From assembly GCA_018371855.1 (NCBI GenBank), contig JAHAKD010000007.1, forward strand, positions 27,820 to 91,819: a stretch of DNA of 64,000 nt. The letters run 5' to 3'. Made by a program: the position numbers and the translations under genes. This document shows, in pieces, positions 5,377 to 52,191 of this stretch. A model generated the notes under the pieces. It did not search any database, was not told the origin of the DNA, and was given only the letters and a program-made list of their open reading frames with translations. Positions within the stretch are counted from its first letter, which is position 1, and each line of letters opens with the position of its first letter. This DNA is from Clostridium sp. Its GTDB lineage: Bacteria > Bacillota > Clostridia > TANB77 > CAG-508.

Positions 5377-6855
5377 TTATAATATTATACAAATTAATCC
5401 ACCACTACCTTCATTTACAATTCGCTCTAGTGTTTCTTGTAATTTTATTTGTGCATCCTCCGGCATATGAGCTAACTTACTTTGTAACCCTTCATTAACA
5501 AGTTCATGTAGACTCTTACCAAAGATATTAGATTCCCAAATTTTCTTAGGGTCGTTTTCAAATTCAGATAGTAAGTAATTTACTAATTCTTCAGATTGTT
5601 TTTCAGAACCAACTATTGGAGATACCTCTGTTTCTATATCGGCTCTTATCATATGTATAGAAGGAGCTTTAGCTTTTAGTTTTACTCCAAATCTAGAGCC
5701 TTGTTTAACCATTTCTGGTTCATCCAATATTAATTCATCAATCGAAGGTGTAACAATTCCATAGCCTTTTGCTTTAACTTCTTCTAAGGCAAAAGATATT
5801 TTATCATATTCTTTCTTTACTTCTGAAAATTCAGCCATTGTTTTAAATAAATCACCATCATTTGAGATTGAAACACCAGAGATTTCTGTTAGTACACTAT
5901 AGAATAGAGTTTCTTTAAGCACAATAGATATATAGACACTTCCAGTTCCAAGTTCAATTTTATTTACACATGCTTGTTGTATAACTTCAGAAGATAATAA
6001 ATTTTGAATGCAGTTGTCAATTTGTTTTAGAATTTTAACTTTTTCAAATGCAGTTTTTAGATCATTTAGTAATGTGCTTTTTAAAGGATGGCTTTCATCT
6101 AGAATATCTATCCACTTCGGAAAACTAATATTAATTTGATTAATAGGGAATTCATATAAAACCTTAGAGAATATATTATTTATATCATCAAGAGTTAATT
6201 CGGAGCAATTAATACAAATTACGGTTGTTTCATACTTTACTTCTAAACTTCTGGCTAATTCCTTTGTGTATTCAGAATTAGGATTTTCAGAATTTAATAC
6301 GATGACAAATGGTTTATTTAAAGATTTTAATTCATTTACAACACGTTCTTCTGCATTTACATAATCTTCTCTAGGAATATCCGTAAAACTACCATCTGTA
6401 GTCATTACAATACCTATTGTAGAATGTTCTTCTATTACTTTTTTTGTTCCTATTTCTGCAGCTTGTTCGAAAGGCATTTCTTCGTCAGACCAAGGCGTTT
6501 TTACCATTCTAGGCATATCATCTTCTAAATACCCTATTGCATTATTAACTAAATAACCAACACAATCTACCAATCTAGTTCTTAATTTAATGTTATCTCC
6601 AATAGTTATTTCGACAGCTTCATTAGGAACAAATTTAGGTTCTGTTGTCATAATTGTTCTTCCTGAGGCGCTTTGTGGTAGTTCATCTGTAGCACGTTCT
6701 TTTTTATACTCATTTTCAATATTAGGAATAACTAATAAATCCATAAAATTTTTTATAAAAGTGGACTTACCAGTTCTAACAGGTCCAACAACACCAACAT
6801 AGATATCGCCATCTGTACGTTTTGCAATATCTTCGTATACATTAATATTTTCCAT
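5377..6855 (-). CDS. spoIVA: Stage IV sporulation protein A (coat-assembly ATPase)
   Basis: The product is 492 aa and begins MENINVYEDIAKRTDGDIYVGVVGPVRTGKSTFIK (Walker A), with the same length and N-terminus as SpoIVA. Confidence 0.92.
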   Translation of the reverse strand: MENINVYEDIAKRTDGDIYVGVVGPVRTGKSTFIKNFMDLLVIPNIENEYKKERATDELPQSASGRTIMTTEPKFVPNEAVEITIGDNIKLRTRLVDCVGYLVNNAIGYLEDDMPRMVKTPWSDEEMPFEQAAEIGTKKVIEEHSTIGIVMTTDGSFTDIPREDYVNAEERVVNELKSLNKPFVIVLNSENPNSEYTKELARSLEVKYETTVICINCSELTLDDINNIFSKVLYEFPINQINISFPKWIDILDESHPLKSTLLNDLKTAFEKVKILKQIDNCIQNLLSSEVIQQACVNKIELGTGSVYISIVLKETLFYSVLTEISGVSISNDGDLFKTMAEFSEVKKEYDKISFALEEVKAKGYGIVTPSIDELILDEPEMVKQGSRFGVKLKAKAPSIHMIRADIETEVSPIVGSEKQSEELVNYLLSEFENDPKKIWESNIFGKSLHELVNEGLQSKLAHMPEDAQIKLQETLERIVNEGSGGLICIIL

Positions 6856-7023
6856 TTATAAAATACCTCCTCATAGAAAATGTTTGTACTAAGTTACTTT
6901 AGTTAAGTATATTAGTGGTTTGTCAAAGATATTCCACAAATTGCAAAAAATGAAGGGAAATTTATAAGCATTGCAAAATAAAAAATCATATGATAAAATA
7001 AAGTAGTGAATTGGAGGTTTAAT

Positions 7024-8277
7024 ATGAAAGATGAAAAAGTAATAGAAAATTTAAAAAAATATAATCAGAATAGAACTTTAAAAATATTAGAAAATGTAGA
7101 TGAAACAACAAAAAATAAGATAATTGAGCAATTAGAAGATATTAATTTCCCACAATTAAAAGAATTATATAACAATATAAAAGAAGAGGCAGAAGTTAAT
7201 GTTGGAGAATTAAAACCAATAAAATCATTAAATCCAGATAAAATATCAAAAGAAGAAAGAGAAAATTATGAAGAGATTGGAGCAGATGTTGTAAGAAATA
7301 AAAAATTTGCAGTAGCGACAATGTCTGGAGGTCAAGGAACTAGACTAGGATATAAAGGGGCAAAAGGAACTTTTAAAATTGATGTAGAACCAGAGCCAAA
7401 GTATTTATTTGAAATAATAGTAGATACATTACAAAGAGCAAATAAACAATATAATACTATAATTCCATGGTATATTATGACAAGTCATGAGAATAATCAA
7501 GAAATAGTGGATTTCATGGAAGAACATAATTATTTTGGATATAATAAAGAATATGTAGGATTTTTCGAACAAGGTGAATTGCCATTAATAACAGAAGATG
7601 GACAAATAATATTAGATGAAAACAACAATATAAAAAAAGCATCAGATGGTAATGGAAGTATATTTAAGTCTATGTACATGAAAGGTGTGCTAGATGATAT
7701 GAAAGAAAAAGGAATAGAATGGGTATACATAGGTTCTATAGATAATGTCTTATTAAAAATGGTAGATACATTATTAATGGGAGTAGCTATAAAAGAAGGT
7801 TCAGAAATTGCTACAAGGTCTATATTTAAAAATACACCAAGAGAAAGAATAGGATCTTTATGTATTCAAGATGGAAAAGTTAAAGTTATAGAATATTCGG
7901 AACTTCCAGAAGATATGATAGAGGCAAAAGACGAAAATGGAGAAATTCTATTTGGCGAATCACATGTAATGTGTAATTTATTTAGTTTAAAAGCCTTGGA
8001 AAAAATTAGCTTACAAAATTTGCAATATCATAAAGCACATAAAAAATATAGCTATATGGATGAAAATGGCAAAATGATTGAACCAGAAGAACCAAATGCT
8101 TATAAATTTGAATATTTTATATTTGACTCATTTGAGTTTTTTAATCAAATTTCTATTGTAAGAGGAAAAAGAGAAGAGGATTTTGCACCAGTAAAAAATA
8201 AAGAAGGTGTAGATAGTCCAGTAACAGCAAGCAAGTTATATAATGATTATTGGAGGAAACAAAATGGAAGAGTGTAA
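7024..8277 (+). CDS. UDP-sugar (UDP-N-acetylhexosamine) pyrophosphorylase, eukaryotic-type UDPGP family
   Basis: MSGGQGTRLGYKGAKGTF nucleotide-binding motif. The RBS GGAGG lies upstream of the ATG at 7024 (the ORF-track start at 7006 is probably too early). Confidence 0.7.
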   Translation: MKDEKVIENLKKYNQNRTLKILENVDETTKNKIIEQLEDINFPQLKELYNNIKEEAEVNVGELKPIKSLNPDKISKEERENYEEIGADVVRNKKFAVATMSGGQGTRLGYKGAKGTFKIDVEPEPKYLFEIIVDTLQRANKQYNTIIPWYIMTSHENNQEIVDFMEEHNYFGYNKEYVGFFEQGELPLITEDGQIILDENNNIKKASDGNGSIFKSMYMKGVLDDMKEKGIEWVYIGSIDNVLLKMVDTLLMGVAIKEGSEIATRSIFKNTPRERIGSLCIQDGKVKVIEYSELPEDMIEAKDENGEILFGESHVMCNLFSLKALEKISLQNLQYHKAHKKYSYMDENGKMIEPEEPNAYKFEYFIFDSFEFFNQISIVRGKREEDFAPVKNKEGVDSPVTASKLYNDYWRKQNGRV

Positions 8278-20541: not shown

Positions 20542-20617
20542 GCTCCCTTAGCTCAGTTGGTCAGAGCAACCGGCTCATAACCGGTGGGTCCAAGGTTCAA
20601 ATCCTTGAGGGAGCACC
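20542..20617 (+). tRNA. tRNA-Met (anticodon CAU; elongator versus Ile2-lysidine type not distinguishable)
   Basis: The cloverleaf folds by hand: acceptor GCTCCCT/AGGGAGC, D-arm GCTCAGTTGGTCAGAGC, anticodon loop CTCATAA, T-arm CAAGGTTCAAATCCTTG, then A-CCA. A TTGACA–N17–TATACT promoter lies at about 20498-20526. Confidence 0.8.
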
Positions 20618-20637
20618 ATTTTTAAATTTAATAATAT

Positions 20638-20946
20638 GGGTAGGTGGCCGAGTGGCTAAAGGCGGCAGACTGTGGTCTTTGGTTTATCAAAAACCTAAAC
20701 TTGCAGCTCATATAAGTGATTATATGATGAACACCGGGCTAATTCGGGGAACTCTTAACAGTAAGGCTGATGACAATCCCGAGCTAGGAAAGAAATTTCC
20801 GAGTGTAGAGACTTTATACCTGGTATCTTAATTTTAAGATAAAGAGAAAGTCCAGACTACAAACATATATATGGTAGTGAAAACTATAGTAGTAAGAAAT
20901 CTGTTCTCATTTGAGTACGATGGTTCGAATCCATCCCTGCCCACCA
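20638..20946 (+). tRNA. tRNA-Tyr (anticodon GUA) gene interrupted in the anticodon loop (between U35 and A36) by a roughly 223-nt group-I-like intron; the spliced tRNA is 86 nt including an encoded CCA
   Basis: 5' exon 20638-20673 (GGGTAGGTGGCCGAGTGGCTAAAGGCGGCAGACTGT) and 3' exon 20897-20946 (AAATCTGTTCTCATTTGAGTACGATGGTTCGAATCCATCCCTGCCCACCA) join into a canonical class-II tRNA-Tyr. The acceptor is GGGTAGG/CCTGCCC, the anticodon stem GCAGA/TCTGT, the loop CU-GUA-AA, with a long variable arm and the T-arm GATGGTTCGAATCCATC. It is nearly collinear with E. coli tRNA-Tyr as recalled from memory. Confidence 0.8.
20674..20896 (+). ncRNA. Putative self-splicing group I intron (small, with no ORF), inserted in the tRNA-Tyr anticodon loop
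   Basis: The insertion follows a U and ends in G (…AGTAAG|), matching the group I 5' splice-site and omega-G rules. It contains R-like (GTGTAGAGACTTTA) and S-like (AAAGAGAAAGTCCAG) core elements, and there is an AGAC/GTCT pairing between the exon end and the intron start. At 223 nt it is comparable to the small tRNA-intron class of about 200 nt, as recalled from the literature. Confidence 0.65.
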
Positions 20947-20949
20947 ATA

Positions 20950-20980
20950 AAGTACAAGCTAAACTTGTATTTTATTTTTA
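20950..20980 (+). terminator. Rho-independent terminator after the tRNA pair
   Basis: AAGTACAAGCtaaaCTTGTATTTTATTTTT. Confidence 0.6.
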
Positions 20981-33524: not shown

Positions 33525-33893
33525 TCATAACTGACGACAAATGTTTAAGTATTTATCTTCGTTTCGTTTTTTCTTACCAGTATGTCTTCTTTTTAATTCA
33601 GCAGATTGGTAGCATCTGCATCCTGGTGACTCTACCACTTGTAGATACCAGACTTTTTTAAAAAGCCTTGTCCGAACAATTATTCCTCCAAGAGAAAGGT
33701 TCATTTTTCTTGAGTAATTCGGAATGGCAATAATATAGCCATAAGGAGCCTCTTCATTAGGTCCTTCCTCGAAGTGGCACCATTTGTCTTCTTTTGTTAC
33801 AGGTCTTACTCTGAAATCATCCCGAGTATAAACCTTTTCTGGTTTTGATGCCCTAGACGAATTCAAGTGTGAATTTTTTGTTTTTCGTTTCAT
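33525..33893 (-). CDS. Hypothetical basic, Cys-containing protein (122 aa) with elevated GC (about 38%)
   Basis: MKRKTKNSHLNSSRASKPEKVYTRDDFRVRPVTKEDKWCHFEEGP…CRCYQSAELKRRHTGKKKRNEDKY…C. It has an RBS GGAGG and no recognisable family. Its composition is distinct from its neighbours. Confidence 0.5.
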   Translation of the reverse strand: MKRKTKNSHLNSSRASKPEKVYTRDDFRVRPVTKEDKWCHFEEGPNEEAPYGYIIAIPNYSRKMNLSLGGIIVRTRLFKKVWYLQVVESPGCRCYQSAELKRRHTGKKKRNEDKYLNICRQL

Positions 33894-49172: not shown

Positions 49173-50573
49173 ATGAAACATGCACAACGTCAAAAGAAAA
49201 AGAATATTACAACACAAAGAAAACAAATTTATATAATAATAGCTATAATAACAATAATACTATTGACTGCAACAGGAGTTTTAGGTGTTAAAATTGCAAA
49301 AAATGGACTATCATTAAAAGGTATGTTAATGACAAGTATAGGTCAAGATGAAAAAGATATTCAAAATTTAGATCCATTTTATTGTTTAGTAATGGGCATA
49401 AGTGAAGATATAGAAGCTAAATTAACAGATACTATCATGCTTTGTGCATATTATCCAAATGAACAAAAAGTATCTATTCTTTCAATACCAAGAGATACAT
49501 TTGTAGGGAATAGTACAACTAGTGCAGATTCATATGATAAAATAAATGCATTATATCAAACTTCACCGGAAAAAACTCTAGAGGCTGTTAGAAATTTAAC
49601 GGGAATAGATGTTAGAAATTATGTTGTAATTAGTAATAATGCATTAAGAGATGTAGTAGATGAAATTGGTGGTGTGTATTTTGATGTTCCTATGAATATG
49701 AATTATGATGATTGGGGGCAAAAATTGCATATAAATTTAAAAAAAGGATATCAACTATTAGATGGTGATAAAGCGGAGCAATTAGTTCGTTTTAGACATA
49801 ATAATGACGGAACAACATATCCTTCAGAATATGGTACACAAGATATAGGTAGAATGAGAACTCAAAGAGAATTTTTAAAAGCAGCAGCAACACAAATTTT
49901 ATCAGGAAATAATATTTTTAAAATAGATGATATAATGCAAGTTGTTTTTGAAAATATAGAAACTAATTTAAAAATGGAAGATATAATAAAATATATTCCT
50001 TCTGCAACTGAATTTAATCCAGAGAATATACAGTCAGAGATGCTTCCAGGAGTGGCTGATTATATTGGAGTGCTATCTTTCTATGTAAATGATGAAGAAG
50101 AAACAAATGCATTAGTAAGTTCTTTATTTGGTCTAACAGAAGAGCAAATAGAAGCTAATAAAGAAAAATTTGAAAAAGAAAGTGGAAAGAAAATACGTAC
50201 TACGACAAATACAAAAAACAATAGCTCAAGTAGTAAGAATACTACTAAAAAAAATACTAATACGAAGAGTACAACCACAAATTCTAATAAAAATAGTTCG
50301 AATACTAATACTTCAGGTGGAAACACTAATACAGGTAAGACTCCTTCAAATCCTTCTGATAACAATGGAGAAACAGGAAATAGTGGAAGTGAATCAAATT
50401 CAGGAAATGGCTCAGGTTCTAATAGTGGTTCAGAAAATGGGTCAGAATCAGGCTCTGGTAATGGGTCAGAATCAGGTTCAGGTAGTGGAAATGAAAGTGG
50501 CTCAGGTTCTGATGGTGAAACAGGAAGTGGTTCTGAAACAAAGCCAGGAAATGGAGAAACTACAACTGAATAA
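49173..50573 (+). CDS. LytR-CpsA-Psr (LCP) family cell-wall polymer transferase with a long S/N/T/G-rich C-terminal tail
   Basis: TM anchor plus LCP core (…DTIMLCAYYPNEQKVSILSIPRDTFV…). Confidence 0.85.
   Translation: MKHAQRQKKKNITTQRKQIYIIIAIITIILLTATGVLGVKIAKNGLSLKGMLMTSIGQDEKDIQNLDPFYCLVMGISEDIEAKLTDTIMLCAYYPNEQKVSILSIPRDTFVGNSTTSADSYDKINALYQTSPEKTLEAVRNLTGIDVRNYVVISNNALRDVVDEIGGVYFDVPMNMNYDDWGQKLHINLKKGYQLLDGDKAEQLVRFRHNNDGTTYPSEYGTQDIGRMRTQREFLKAAATQILSGNNIFKIDDIMQVVFENIETNLKMEDIIKYIPSATEFNPENIQSEMLPGVADYIGVLSFYVNDEEETNALVSSLFGLTEEQIEANKEKFEKESGKKIRTTTNTKNNSSSSKNTTKKNTNTKSTTTNSNKNSSNTNTSGGNTNTGKTPSNPSDNNGETGNSGSESNSGNGSGSNSGSENGSESGSGNGSESGSGSGNESGSGSDGETGSGSETKPGNGETTTE
50380..50560 (+). 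repeat. Imperfect short tandem repeats encoding (G-S-G-N/E-S)n inside the LCP tail
   Basis: …AATGGGTCAGAATCAGGCTCTGGTAATGGGTCAGAATCAGGTTCAGGTAGTGGAAATGAAAGTGGCTCAGGTTCT…. Confidence 0.6.
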
Positions 50574-50618: not shown

Positions 50619-51242
50619 TTATTTAGTTAAATCAATAACTTTAGTTAAAATATCACCATATTTTTCTATTGCGGTTTCTCCTTTATTTACTAAAAAATTA
50701 TCGATGGAAATATCTGATATATCATGCTTTTCAACAGTATTATTAATATTTTTATAGACTATAGAAGATATAGATTGTTTAGTACCATTTATTAGGTCTA
50801 ATGTATCTTGTGCATTTACTTTTACAAGTCCGGTTACTTCACTAGTATCAAAATTAAAATCTTTTCCATTACCATTATATTCACAAACATAAACATTGGA
50901 AAATGCTCTATCTCGAAACATAGAACCATCACTTTTTTGTTTGTCCATAGTAAAAGTATATATATTTACAAGCTCCGCTTTTTCATAATTTACATTAATT
51001 CCAATTTCTTCTTTAATTTCTCGTGCAAATCCTTGTTTAACAGTTTCTCCGGCTTTAATATGTCCAGATGCAGTCGTATATAATTTATTAACATCTGCTC
51101 TTATTTGGAAATAAACATTACCTTCTTTATCATATAGCCAGCAATGAACTGTTTTGTGCCATAGAGCGTTTTTATGTACATTTTCTCTTGTTTCTTTTCC
51201 AATATAATTTCCGTTTTCATCATAGATATCTAAGTATTCCAT
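50619..51242 (-). CDS. NUDIX hydrolase
   Basis: Nudix box GHIKAGETVKQGFAREIKEEIGI (GX5EX7REUXEEXGU). Confidence 0.85.
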   Translation of the reverse strand: MEYLDIYDENGNYIGKETRENVHKNALWHKTVHCWLYDKEGNVYFQIRADVNKLYTTASGHIKAGETVKQGFAREIKEEIGINVNYEKAELVNIYTFTMDKQKSDGSMFRDRAFSNVYVCEYNGNGKDFNFDTSEVTGLVKVNAQDTLDLINGTKQSISSIVYKNINNTVEKHDISDISIDNFLVNKGETAIEKYGDILTKVIDLTK

Positions 51243-51321
51243 ATTAGTTCTCCCTTAATAATAAATTGTAAATTTATTGTAGCATAATAACATCATAATT
51301 TAAATAAGATATTATTTTTAA

Positions 51322-51354
51322 TAAATAAAAAACTGCACTCATTTTGAGTGCAGC
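51322..51354 (-). terminator. Rho-independent terminator of the GC-rich gene
   Basis: CTGCACTCAttttGAGTGCAG preceded by an A-run on the plus strand (a T-run on the minus strand). Confidence 0.65.
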
Positions 51355-51369
51355 AAACAATTTGTTTTT

Positions 51370-51786
51370 TTACCAGCAACTTGCGAGGTTCCAGATCCAA
51401 ACATCAAGGCCATAGGAAGCATCACTGATAACAACAATGAAGTTGCTTCCAGCATGTGCAATCAACTGAGGATTGCTTACTTCAGTCAGGATCTTCTGAA
51501 TGTCAGAGGTGCGTTGTGTGTTGCAAGCACCATTGTGAGGCTGATGTACAAGGATTTTATCAGCATGCACATTCTTCTTAACGATGGCAGAAAGCACATC
51601 GTAAGCGATAGGATCGGTACTGAAAGCCTTGTCACAAGTCTGAGTGTCGGGAGAGCATTTTACTTCATCTTCCTTTTCATACACTACACTAGAACCAATC
51701 AAACTCCACAGACCAACCAAACGATTGTCACTACTAAGGTCAACCCACTGACACGGACAGTAACCTTCACTTTCAAATTTTGCCAT
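51370..51786 (-). CDS. Hypothetical Cys-rich 138-aa protein encoded by a markedly GC-rich (about 45%) island
   Basis: AGGAGG RBS before the ATG at 51786 (MAKFESEGYCPCQWVDLSSDNRLVGLW…VHQPHNGACNTQRTSDIQ…SDASYGLDVWIWNLASCW). It has its own terminator. Its composition contrasts sharply with the roughly 28% GC flanks, and a tRNA-Thr gene lies 270 bp away. Confidence 0.6.
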   Translation of the reverse strand: MAKFESEGYCPCQWVDLSSDNRLVGLWSLIGSSVVYEKEDEVKCSPDTQTCDKAFSTDPIAYDVLSAIVKKNVHADKILVHQPHNGACNTQRTSDIQKILTEVSNPQLIAHAGSNFIVVISDASYGLDVWIWNLASCW

Positions 51787-51830
51787 AATGTTTCCTCCTG
51801 CGTAATAACGCGAATCAAGATTAATAAAGT

Positions 51831-51855
51831 TACTAATGAAATACATTCATTAGTA
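51831..51855. promoter_or_regulatory. Perfect 10-5-10 palindrome TACTAATGAA-ATACA-TTCATTAGTA overlapping the putative -10 (TATAAT on the minus strand) of the GC-rich gene, a candidate operator
   Basis: The palindrome is read directly from the sequence and lies between the -10 element and the RBS of the 51786 gene. Confidence 0.5.
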
Positions 51856-52115
51856 TAATTATAACATAATTTACATAAAATTTCAAACTATAATATTTTG
51901 GGACTTGTTAGAGTGTTTATTTCCTATTATAGTATTTTGAAATCCTTTTAAAATACTATTAAAACTTTATACATTTGCAAGGCAATAAATTTTTCTATAC
52001 AATTATCTATATTGCTAATACAACTTACTAAAATAATTTTTTCGCAAATAAAAAAATCAATCATTTCTGATTGATTACTATATTAAAGTTCGAATGGTTC
52101 GAACAAAAACGTCAC

Positions 52116-52191
52116 TGGTGCCATTGGGCAGAATCGAACTGCCGACCTTCGGGTTACGAATCCGCTGCTCTACCAACTAAGCTACAACGGC
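52116..52191 (-). tRNA. tRNA-Thr (anticodon CGU), with an imperfect anticodon stem
   Basis: The minus-strand read is GCCGTTGTAGCTTAGTTGGTAGAGCAGCGGATTCGTAACCCGAAGGTCGGCAGTTCGATTCTGCCCAATGGCACCA. Acceptor, D-arm and T-arm are canonical. The loop is TTCGTAA, and the anticodon stem has two mismatches. Confidence 0.65.

Follow-up and report, generated by a model that had tools for sequence, protein, structure and literature searches.

A short islet lies directly 3' of a tRNA-Thr(CGT) gene in a 64,000-nucleotide stretch of Clostridium sp. DNA (contig JAHAKD010000007.1, positions 27,820 to 91,819; hereafter the window), and carries on the minus strand a single gene for a protein of 138 amino acids (aa). 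The islet is probably a minimal, integrase-less insertion at the 3' end of the tRNA gene, with a monocistronic cassette of tRNA-targeting elements whose high G+C content (GC) is selectively kept. In the proposed scheme, the islet (52115-51257) would supply the tRNA with a new trailer and terminator and would carry a single monocistronic cassette made up, in order, of a strong sigma-A promoter, a two-hairpin 5' untranslated region (UTR), a Shine-Dalgarno sequence, a G+C-rich open reading frame (ORF) and a double-hairpin terminator. The cassette would be the cargo or the surviving remnant of tRNA-targeting integrative elements, a reading suggested by its occurrence after many tRNA and transfer-messenger RNA (tmRNA) genes, in some cases with repeats of the tRNA 3' end or with recombinase or relaxase genes. 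It would be swapped horizontally among related hosts and then retained by selection as the rest of the element decays. A stem-loop at the 5' end of the mRNA (P1) would stabilise the transcript, selection on synonymous sites would hold the G+C of the ORF high, and the protein would have a binding or inhibitor role in genetic conflict (immunity, exclusion or anti-defence). A stronger and rather doubtful version is offered tentatively, namely that a new single-gene, integrase-less cassette circulates among AT-rich gut Clostridia by insertion directly behind tRNA and tmRNA genes, has a coding sequence kept by mRNA selection at a third-position GC (GC3) of 0.4-0.7 in genomes at about 0.1, and encodes a conflict protein with a new fold.

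The limits of the islet are set by comparison with a sister species (loci L069 and L070), which was found by searching with the Nudix protein encoded downstream. The gene order at L069 and L070 is that of the window (UPF0182, ftsY, tRNA-Thr, Nudix, LytR_cpsA_psr-family (LCP) gene, S41 protease, tsf, rpsB), and at L069 the tRNA-Thr gene is followed by only 37 nt until homology with the window resumes. In a BLASTN comparison with L069, the two sequences are 91.9% identical up to the last base of the tRNA (52116), and the alignment resumes at 88.1% identity at 51256. Because homology stops and restarts at these positions, the window contains 859 extra bp. The left edge of the islet falls exactly after the CCA of the tRNA, which argues for an integrase-less islet at the tRNA 3' end, while the right edge lies 13 nt before the Nudix ATG and could reach inwards to about 51311. 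Extra DNA thus stands directly 3' of an intact tRNA gene, at a site that is empty in L069 and L070. This is the presence/absence difference that the original prediction sought among relatives, and its self-contained single-gene insertion at a tRNA site is borne out by flanks that are 88-92% identical to the sister species and by the break after CCA. The tRNA-Thr(CGU) gene was also correctly placed on the same strand as the islet gene; its distance, given as 270 bp, is in fact 329 nt from the tRNA 3' end to the ATG and 229 nt to the -35 hexamer.

The first 60 nt of the islet contain a tRNA trailer motif of the form (G/A)TGACGT(T/A)T(C/T)TGTTCGAAC, a small hairpin, the terminator AATCAATCA...TGATTGATT and a T-run. 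Homologues of this trailer follow tRNA-Leu(TAG) in L002 and L026, tRNA-Leu(CAA) in L034 (twice), tRNA-Gly in L010 and tmRNA in L011, whereas trailer and terminator are both absent from the empty site of L069. Since the trailer is common to other tRNA and tmRNA sites and missing at the empty site, it belongs to the inserted unit, and the fact that different tRNAs share it suggests that this unit, inserted at tRNA 3' ends, is very small. The arrival of the islet also bears on the adjoining Nudix gene, which at the empty site begins 52 nt after the tRNA and has no obvious promoter; in the window, the islet terminators stand between the two genes. Judged from these signals, the insertion has probably rewired transcription of the resident Nudix gene, which a weak promoter-like site within the islet could drive.

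The relatives of the cassette show the same attachment to stable RNA genes. In 11 distinct contexts, a tRNA or tmRNA gene on the same strand precedes the cassette by at most 600 nt (Thr-CGT three times, Leu-TAG twice, and Leu-GAG, Leu-TAA, Leu-CAA, Gly-TCC, Met plus Tyr, and tmRNA once each), and at least eight different tRNAs or tmRNA precede the same cassette. In L034, the cassette lies between two 40-nt direct repeats, composed of the last 20 nt of tRNA-Leu and the trailer and spaced 1292 bp apart, and a similar set of repeats about 1035 bp apart is present in L002. Mobile-element genes stand directly upstream of the cassette in L008/L010, L021/L077 and L018. At L010, tRNA-Gly is followed by the trailer, then by element genes with a recombinase fragment among them, and then by the cassette; at L009 a tyrosine integrase adjoins a second tRNA-Gly, and at L077 Mob_Pre and Bro-N genes are found. 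Within the P0022 species the DNA upstream of the cassette differs by strain (Mob_Pre and Bro-N in one, LysR and IS3 in another) and the downstream DNA is constant. Taken together, the 11 tRNA and tmRNA contexts, the empty site and the repeats and mobile genes of the relatives support the earlier suggestion that the tRNA gene is an integration hot-spot.

The islet can be compared with two known kinds of accessory DNA. Islets associated with tRNA genes and decayed integrative elements include the cis-mobilizable element (CIME)-type remnants of integrative and conjugative elements (ICE) and integrative and mobilizable elements (IME) in streptococci. The likeness lies in the position at the exact tRNA 3' end, the replacement trailer and terminator, the tRNA-3'-end repeats and nearby recombinase or relaxase genes of the relatives, and the presence/absence between sister species. 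However, the window islet is just 859 bp long and has neither an att repeat nor a mobility gene, and its cassette recurs downstream of tmRNA and of many different tRNAs. Morons of phages and ICE are accessory units of deviant GC that are transcribed from a promoter of their own and end in their own terminator. The cassette is likewise an autonomous promoter-ORF-terminator unit of deviant composition, with family-conserved signals round a single ORF, and in some relatives it stands at the edge of mobile DNA. In contrast to morons, it has no surrounding prophage, there being no phage or ICE genes at the window locus and mobile genes beside the cassette in some relatives only, and its deviation in composition is deeply conserved and ends at the ORF boundaries. 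A phage origin was rejected, as no relative of the protein is present in IMG/VR.

The expression signals named in the original prediction, an AGGAGG ribosome-binding site and a promoter and terminator belonging to the gene itself, are all present. The promoter is kept across the family, including its 'TTTTATGTAAA' spacer, and a transcription start at about 51851 is predicted from the -10 hexamer at 51858-51863. The terminator stem at 51332-51354 has a folding energy of -15.9 kcal/mol (z = -4.05), and the double-hairpin layout of the 3' end is again kept in the family. From these signals, the gene would be expected to be strongly expressed.

The feature that first drew attention to the gene is its composition, reported as about 45% GC in a genome of about 28%. 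The measured values are close to this: the ORF has a GC of 43.6% (0.50, 0.40 and 0.41 at the first, second and third codon positions) against 27.8% for the whole window, and the highest 400-bp GC value of the window falls on it. All other long ORFs of the window have a GC3 of 0.09-0.18, including rpsB, tsf, rplS and rplU. The second most GC-rich ORF, at 33525-33893(-), encodes a basic 122-aa protein beginning MKRKTKNSHLNSSRASKPEK... and has a GC of 0.37 and a GC3 of 0.29. Local GC is also lifted to 0.40 at 50405-50554(+), by a Ser/Gly/Asn/Glu-rich tail of low complexity, built of imperfect repeats, at the end of the LCP gene (49173-50573).

The atypical, island-like composition of the islet is limited to the ORF. 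GC steps up and down at the start and stop codons, and the promoter and UTRs are AT-rich, the window values being 0.19 upstream, 0.26 in the 5' UTR, 0.43-0.48 in the ORF, 0.20 in the 3' UTR and 0.27 downstream. The family means follow the same course (0.28, 0.375, 0.46-0.53, 0.33 and 0.28, respectively). In all 36 loci examined, the GC of the cassette gene exceeds that of its flanks, with a GC3 of 0.41-0.70 next to flanks of 25-46% GC; genome loci with AT-rich flanks have a gene GC of 43-52% against 26-29%, and metagenome loci behave likewise. The syntenic pair L013/L014, in which the cassette lies between recG and thrS, gives an indication of how long this composition lasts. The flanking genes of this pair have a synonymous divergence (dS) of 0.58-0.73 at a GC3 of 0.10, while the cassette, at a dS of 0.94, still has a GC3 of 0.67-0.69 in both members. 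By a rough calculation, neutral sequence would be expected to have shed most of its excess GC over such a divergence. The high G+C therefore reads as an actively maintained property of the coding sequence, not as an un-ameliorated foreign trace.

These observations bear most directly on the explanation proposed at the outset, in which the gene is recently acquired, un-ameliorated cargo from a GC-richer donor, repressed by a dimeric regulator that binds a palindrome over the promoter. Of the rival explanations it survives best, and it is nevertheless unlikely. The presence/absence at tRNA-Thr between species that are about 90% identical does indicate a relatively recent gain or loss, cassette alleles move between lineages, and a perfect, window-unique repeat at the predicted +1 occupies a classic operator place. 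However, none of the 94 homologues or 91 clusters of the family points to a donor of matching GC, and the deviation is shared by all 36 loci, is confined to the ORF and persists in L013/L014, so that it cannot serve as a sign of recent acquisition. The original prediction had itself named a similar GC in all relatives, at a universally conserved position, as evidence against acquisition; the similar GC is what is found, whereas the position of the cassette varies between relatives.

The second part of that explanation depends on the inverted repeat upstream of the gene. The 10-5-10 repeat is present and perfect as described, and nothing else in the window matches it, even with three mismatches tolerated (0.01 expected by chance). 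It does not overlap the -10 element, as had been stated: the best -10 hexamer lies at 51858-51863, and the repeat begins 2 nt downstream of it and spans the predicted transcription start. In an alignment of 21 upstream regions, the window repeat appears as a shortened form of a family stem, GTGATGAA...TTCATCAG, that begins at the predicted +1 and has 8-12 bp and a loop of 10-19 nt, usually containing ACUCC. Pair counts support both this stem and a second hairpin, P2: 84% of the cells are paired, compared to 27-46% with slid partners, and the covariation score of 0.232 is reached in 0 of 500 shuffles (mean 0.117) and by none of the slid controls (at most 0.067). Within the window copy itself, A-U has replaced G-C at alignment columns 40-70, and the pair at columns 38-72 is repaired to C-G. 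P2, which abuts the Shine-Dalgarno sequence, is paired in 100% of the sequences, with compensatory change at all four of its base pairs.

An operator would be expected to keep its half-sites at a fixed spacing. The arms of the repeat instead change in a compensatory manner, and their spacing varies from 5 nt in the window to about 8-19 nt in relatives, which argues for an RNA stem-loop rather than a repressor operator. In addition, no cognate regulator accompanies the repeat, as the islet contains no regulator ORF, and the search for other copies of the palindrome that had been proposed found none within the 64 kb. We therefore argue, from the aligned sequences, that the inverted repeat reflects in the DNA a stem-loop, P1, with which the mRNA begins, and that it is not the palindromic operator initially described. 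Stem-loops at the 5' terminus stabilise mRNAs in Firmicutes and E. coli, as in the aprE, ermC and ompA leaders. Like these, P1 is a stem at or next to the predicted transcription start, with covarying pairs kept by compensatory changes and a strong Shine-Dalgarno sequence downstream, and by analogy it would presumably stabilise the transcript. It differs from them in that it is known from sequence alone, and in that the relatives have the anti-Shine-Dalgarno-like ACUCC in the loop. This loop hints at an additional translational role that would have been lost in the window copy, from which ACUCC is absent.

Both G-ending and C-ending codons are enriched in the ORF family, and A-ending codons are the most depleted. 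We infer that selection at synonymous sites of the translated mRNA, for stability or expression, maintains the high G+C. Alternatively, the gene might be an ordinary, very highly expressed, lineage-specific housekeeping gene with translational codon bias and an incidental tRNA neighbourhood. The near-consensus promoter, the perfect Shine-Dalgarno sequence, the MAK start and the stabilising-looking UTRs would suit such a gene, as would its purifying selection, its single copy per locus and its stable position within species. However, ordinary translational selection is unlikely given that the ribosomal proteins of the host have a GC3 of at most 0.18 (0.10-0.18 in the window for ribosomal-protein and EF-Ts genes) and that G-ending codons are enriched besides C-ending ones. 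Furthermore, the gene is missing at the orthologous site of the sister species, and its neighbours across the family include eight or more different tRNA and tmRNA genes, accompanied by direct repeats or genes of mobile elements. This explanation is slightly less likely still than that of a GC-rich donor.

ORF 51370-51786(-) is a real protein gene. The differences between orthologues amount to 0.31, 0.24 and 0.54 at the three codon positions, the ratio of nonsynonymous to synonymous divergence (dN/dS, Nei-Gojobori) is 0.1-0.25 in most pairs, and indels among homologues keep the reading frame. A search of 5.8 billion proteins yielded 94 homologues of about 138-149 aa, with identities down to 41%, all of them lacking Pfam domains and informative names. 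When 1.84 billion cluster representatives were searched exhaustively with a profile, only 91 clusters were returned. The family amounts to about 90 clusters at 50% identity, mainly from low-GC uncultured gut Clostridia. For the window protein and 76 members of the family no significant match to Pfam was found, and the PHROGs, NCBIfam, PADLOC and PDB sequence profile searches were equally without a significant match, in keeping with the initial inability to assign the protein to a family. A literature search for a described precedent found nothing relevant. Structure prediction, as had been recommended, gave a confident AlphaFold2 model from 76 sequences (predicted local distance difference test score (pLDDT) 90.3, predicted template modelling score (pTM) 0.85) of an alpha/beta protein whose C-terminal half forms a beta-alpha-beta-beta-beta unit. 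No known fold is matched by this model, the best Foldseek hits having E values of at least 0.07 against PDB and at least 0.09 against BFVD. The hits to the beta-alpha-beta-beta-beta module of VOC/glyoxalase proteins and to the PNP_UDP_1 fold are sub-significant, cover less than half of the protein, fall well short of a match over most of the domain, and have 3-17% identity, and no metal-binding or active-site residues can be mapped.

The protein would be soluble; most family members have an isoelectric point (pI) of 4.5-5.3, with values up to 6.06, and there is no hydrophobic leader. W27, F55, D58, D95, S114 and W132 are invariant. The description of the protein as Cys-rich holds for the window copy, which has six cysteines. 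Of these, C10 alone is shared by 90% or more of the 76 homologues, and the CPC motif and the C-terminal CW are variable. A thiol enzyme of the rhodanese, phosphatase or CHAP type is thus not supported, as neither a hidden Markov model nor a fold match nor a conserved catalytic Cys motif was found in the window protein and the 76 members. The family also contains tandem two-domain fusions, namely P0117 (281 aa), P0121, P0130 and P0136, with loci at L081 4153-4998 and L082 1890-2735; the P0117 gene lies between a Mur ligase gene and amidase_3 and thrS genes.

The coding evidence also weighs on the possibility that a structured non-coding RNA, perhaps one of dual function, makes up the GC-rich segment or overlaps with it. 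GC peaks in AT-rich genomes usually mark structured RNAs, the cassette is a neighbour of tRNA, tmRNA and (in L001) RNase P RNA genes with a strong promoter and terminator of its own, and RNAalifold finds an internal stem between alignment columns 290-299 and 354-365 with some double changes. Nonetheless, there is no Rfam match at the gathering threshold or at E values up to 10, and the minimum free energy of the segment is unexceptional in both the sense and the antisense direction (z = -1.07 and -1.22, respectively). RNAalifold on 19 whole transcripts gives only -14.7 kcal/mol and 39 pairs over about 560 nt, and the substitution pattern is protein-like, with frame-preserving indels. The embedded structured RNA that was initially considered as another source of the high GC is therefore not found, and this explanation is improbable. 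Least credible of all is an in-phase antisense gene (plus-strand ORF 51454-51858, 134 aa) that would constrain the codons and raise GC: the frame is fully open in 8 of 17 orthologues and TTA, CTA and TCA are rarer than third-base composition predicts (P(open) of 0.02-0.3 per sequence in a crude model), but it is broken in L005, L008, L012, L015 and L018, neither a conserved start codon nor a conserved ribosome-binding site was observed for it, and an antisense protein would not be conserved, since sense third positions, which are antisense first positions, change fastest. The antisense ORF was discarded as a by-product of the avoidance of TTA, CTA and TCA, which is expected from the avoidance of A-ending, GC-poor codons.

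The histories of the cassette and of its hosts disagree. Between L060 and L039 the cassette has a dS of 0.47, less than the 1.22 of ftsY, while between L047 and L060 the cassette proteins are 64% identical and the FtsY proteins 93%. This disagreement shows that alleles are exchanged horizontally. Selection on the protein is purifying in most lineages. In the trio L008/L010/L040, however, 14-26 nonsynonymous differences are found against 0-1.8 synonymous ones, and between L008 and L010 the ORF is 6.6% divergent against 0.5% in 2.4 kb of flanks, with changes spread over codons 6-140. The substitution counts indicate positive selection in this clade, because import of a diverged allele would add synonymous differences and the changes made by a diversity-generating retroelement (DGR) would be localised and adenine-specific. 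DGR-like hypermutation was rejected for the L008/L010 clade on account of this spread and because the changes are not adenine-specific.

From the association with mobile elements, the expression signals of the gene, allele replacement and the nonsynonymous burst in one clade, we infer a putative role of the protein in genetic conflict. It resembles orphan immunity and anti-defence proteins in being small, acidic, cytoplasmic, monocistronic and linked to mobile DNA, with alleles replaced between lineages and a dN/dS far above 1 in one clade. It differs from them in having no match in sequence or fold, and no conserved partner toxin or defence gene nearby.

Several observations weigh against this account of the islet and its cassette. 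The window islet contains no flanking att-type direct repeat of at least 14 nt and no integrase or recombinase, the 138-aa gene being its sole ORF of any length, so that the mechanism of insertion has to be read from the relatives; moreover, a secondary deletion in the sister species L069, instead of an insertion in the window, is a possible origin of the difference. With respect to composition, we know of no experiment or precedent that explains selection for synonymous G+C in one gene alone. Frequent allele replacement weakens the argument from long residence, and a GC-richer reservoir could conceivably be the source of the alleles. A parsimony polarisation of synonymous AT-to-GC against GC-to-AT changes was dropped; because it returned an 'equilibrium' of 0.30 for control flank genes with a GC3 of 0.11, the test is biased and uninformative. 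A DNA-level role of the repeat is also possible, the +1 being a predicted one. Finally, for a conflict role, the protein has no homologue on IMG/VR viral contigs and no match among defence-system models (PADLOC).

Atypical GC is routinely taken as a mark of recent transfer, and the cassette is a counter-example, in which it is a stable trait limited to an ORF in genomes of 26-29% GC. The cassette thereby offers a tractable system for studying what upholds synonymous G+C against strong AT mutation pressure. The protein family is new, with a confident predicted structure and neither relatives nor annotation; given its strong expression signals and the burst of amino-acid change in one clade, it may serve a new function in conflict or immunity in gut Clostridia, a poorly studied group. 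The features of the window locus are collected in Table 1.

Table 1. Features of the tRNA-Thr locus and of the islet (positions within the window)
Feature	Position	Strand	Basis or remark
tRNA-Thr(CGT), insertion target, intact	52116..52191	-	ARAGORN; Rfam 63 bits; 76/76 identical to L069
Islet, 859 bp compared with 37 nt in L069/L070	51257..52115	-	Ends of BLASTN blocks; empty-site sequence; gene order
Islet-borne tRNA trailer, motif GTGACGTTTTTGTTCGAAC and short hairpin	52088..52114	-	Homologous to trailers of relatives
Hairpin AATCAATCA-gaaa-TGATTGATT and T-run, tRNA terminator supplied by islet	52050..52076	-	Kept in islets of L002, L010, L011, L034
Sigma-A-type promoter TTGAAA-17-TATAAT, extended -10 TG	51858..51886	-	11/12 consensus positions
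10-5-10 inverted repeat, 5' UTR stem-loop P1	51831..51855	-	Predicted mRNA 5' end
5' UTR hairpin P2 (GCGT-tatt-ACGC)	51800..51811	-	Abuts Shine-Dalgarno sequence
Shine-Dalgarno sequence AGGAGG	51794..51799	-	7 nt before ATG
Coding sequence of 138-aa acidic (pI 4.85) alpha/beta protein, undescribed family	51370..51786	-	GC 43.6%
Transcript 3' end: small A/U hairpin, GC-rich terminator stem (51332-51354), T-run	51322..51367	-	
Weak promoter-like site TTTAAA-17-TACAAT with TG, inside islet, before Nudix gene	51276..51304	-	Putative, from sequence

Further elements are found around the cassette in its relatives. At L034 the cassette region is flanked by a 100-nt direct repeat (5579-5678 and 6893-6992; 86% identical) with an internal hairpin, and the tRNA trailer region at 5469-5576 weakly resembles the Fusobacteriales-1 RNA motif, below the threshold (32.8 bits, E = 0.28). 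Just after the cassette terminator, several relatives share a promoter and a two-hairpin element about 70 nt long (L001 5480-5600, L002 5500-5620, L004 800-900, L008/L010 5520-5610, L009 5500-5590 and L034 6510-6600), which is absent from the window. This element ends in GGCACCA at tRNA-Leu loci and in GCTCCA at tRNA-Gly loci, has no Rfam match, and may be a small RNA, a tRNA-3'-end mimic or what is left of an attR site.

The genes next to the cassette are often mutually unrelated nucleotide or nucleoside hydrolases, as in L001, L002, L004, L009, L011, L080 and the window (50619-51242), and comprise HD domain proteins (three), Ham1/RdgB, a fusion of NT5C and IU_nuc_hydro, a TadA-like deaminase, PNP_UDP_1 and Nudix. 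The Nudix gene of the window is present at the empty site too and is therefore a resident, so that the pattern may be due to chance or be a property of tRNA neighbourhoods. A defence-island context was rejected, as these neighbours are housekeeping-type nucleotide hydrolases with only trivial domain matches to defence systems. At L001, an RNase P RNA gene (7182-7528, minus strand) follows the cassette at a distance of 1.8 kb; like the neighbouring tRNA and tmRNA genes, it indicates that the cassette tends to sit among stable-RNA genes.

Elsewhere in the window, a tRNA-Met gene (20542-20618) is directly followed at 20632-20950(+) by a sequence that begins with the 5' half of a tRNA-like sequence, GGTAGGTGGCCGAGTGGCTAAAGGCGGCAGACTGT..., and is not called by ARAGORN. 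A sub-threshold match to the group I intron model RF00028 covers 20670-20874 (40 bits, where the gathering score is 50; E = 1.6e-8), and the region is probably a tRNA gene interrupted by an intron.

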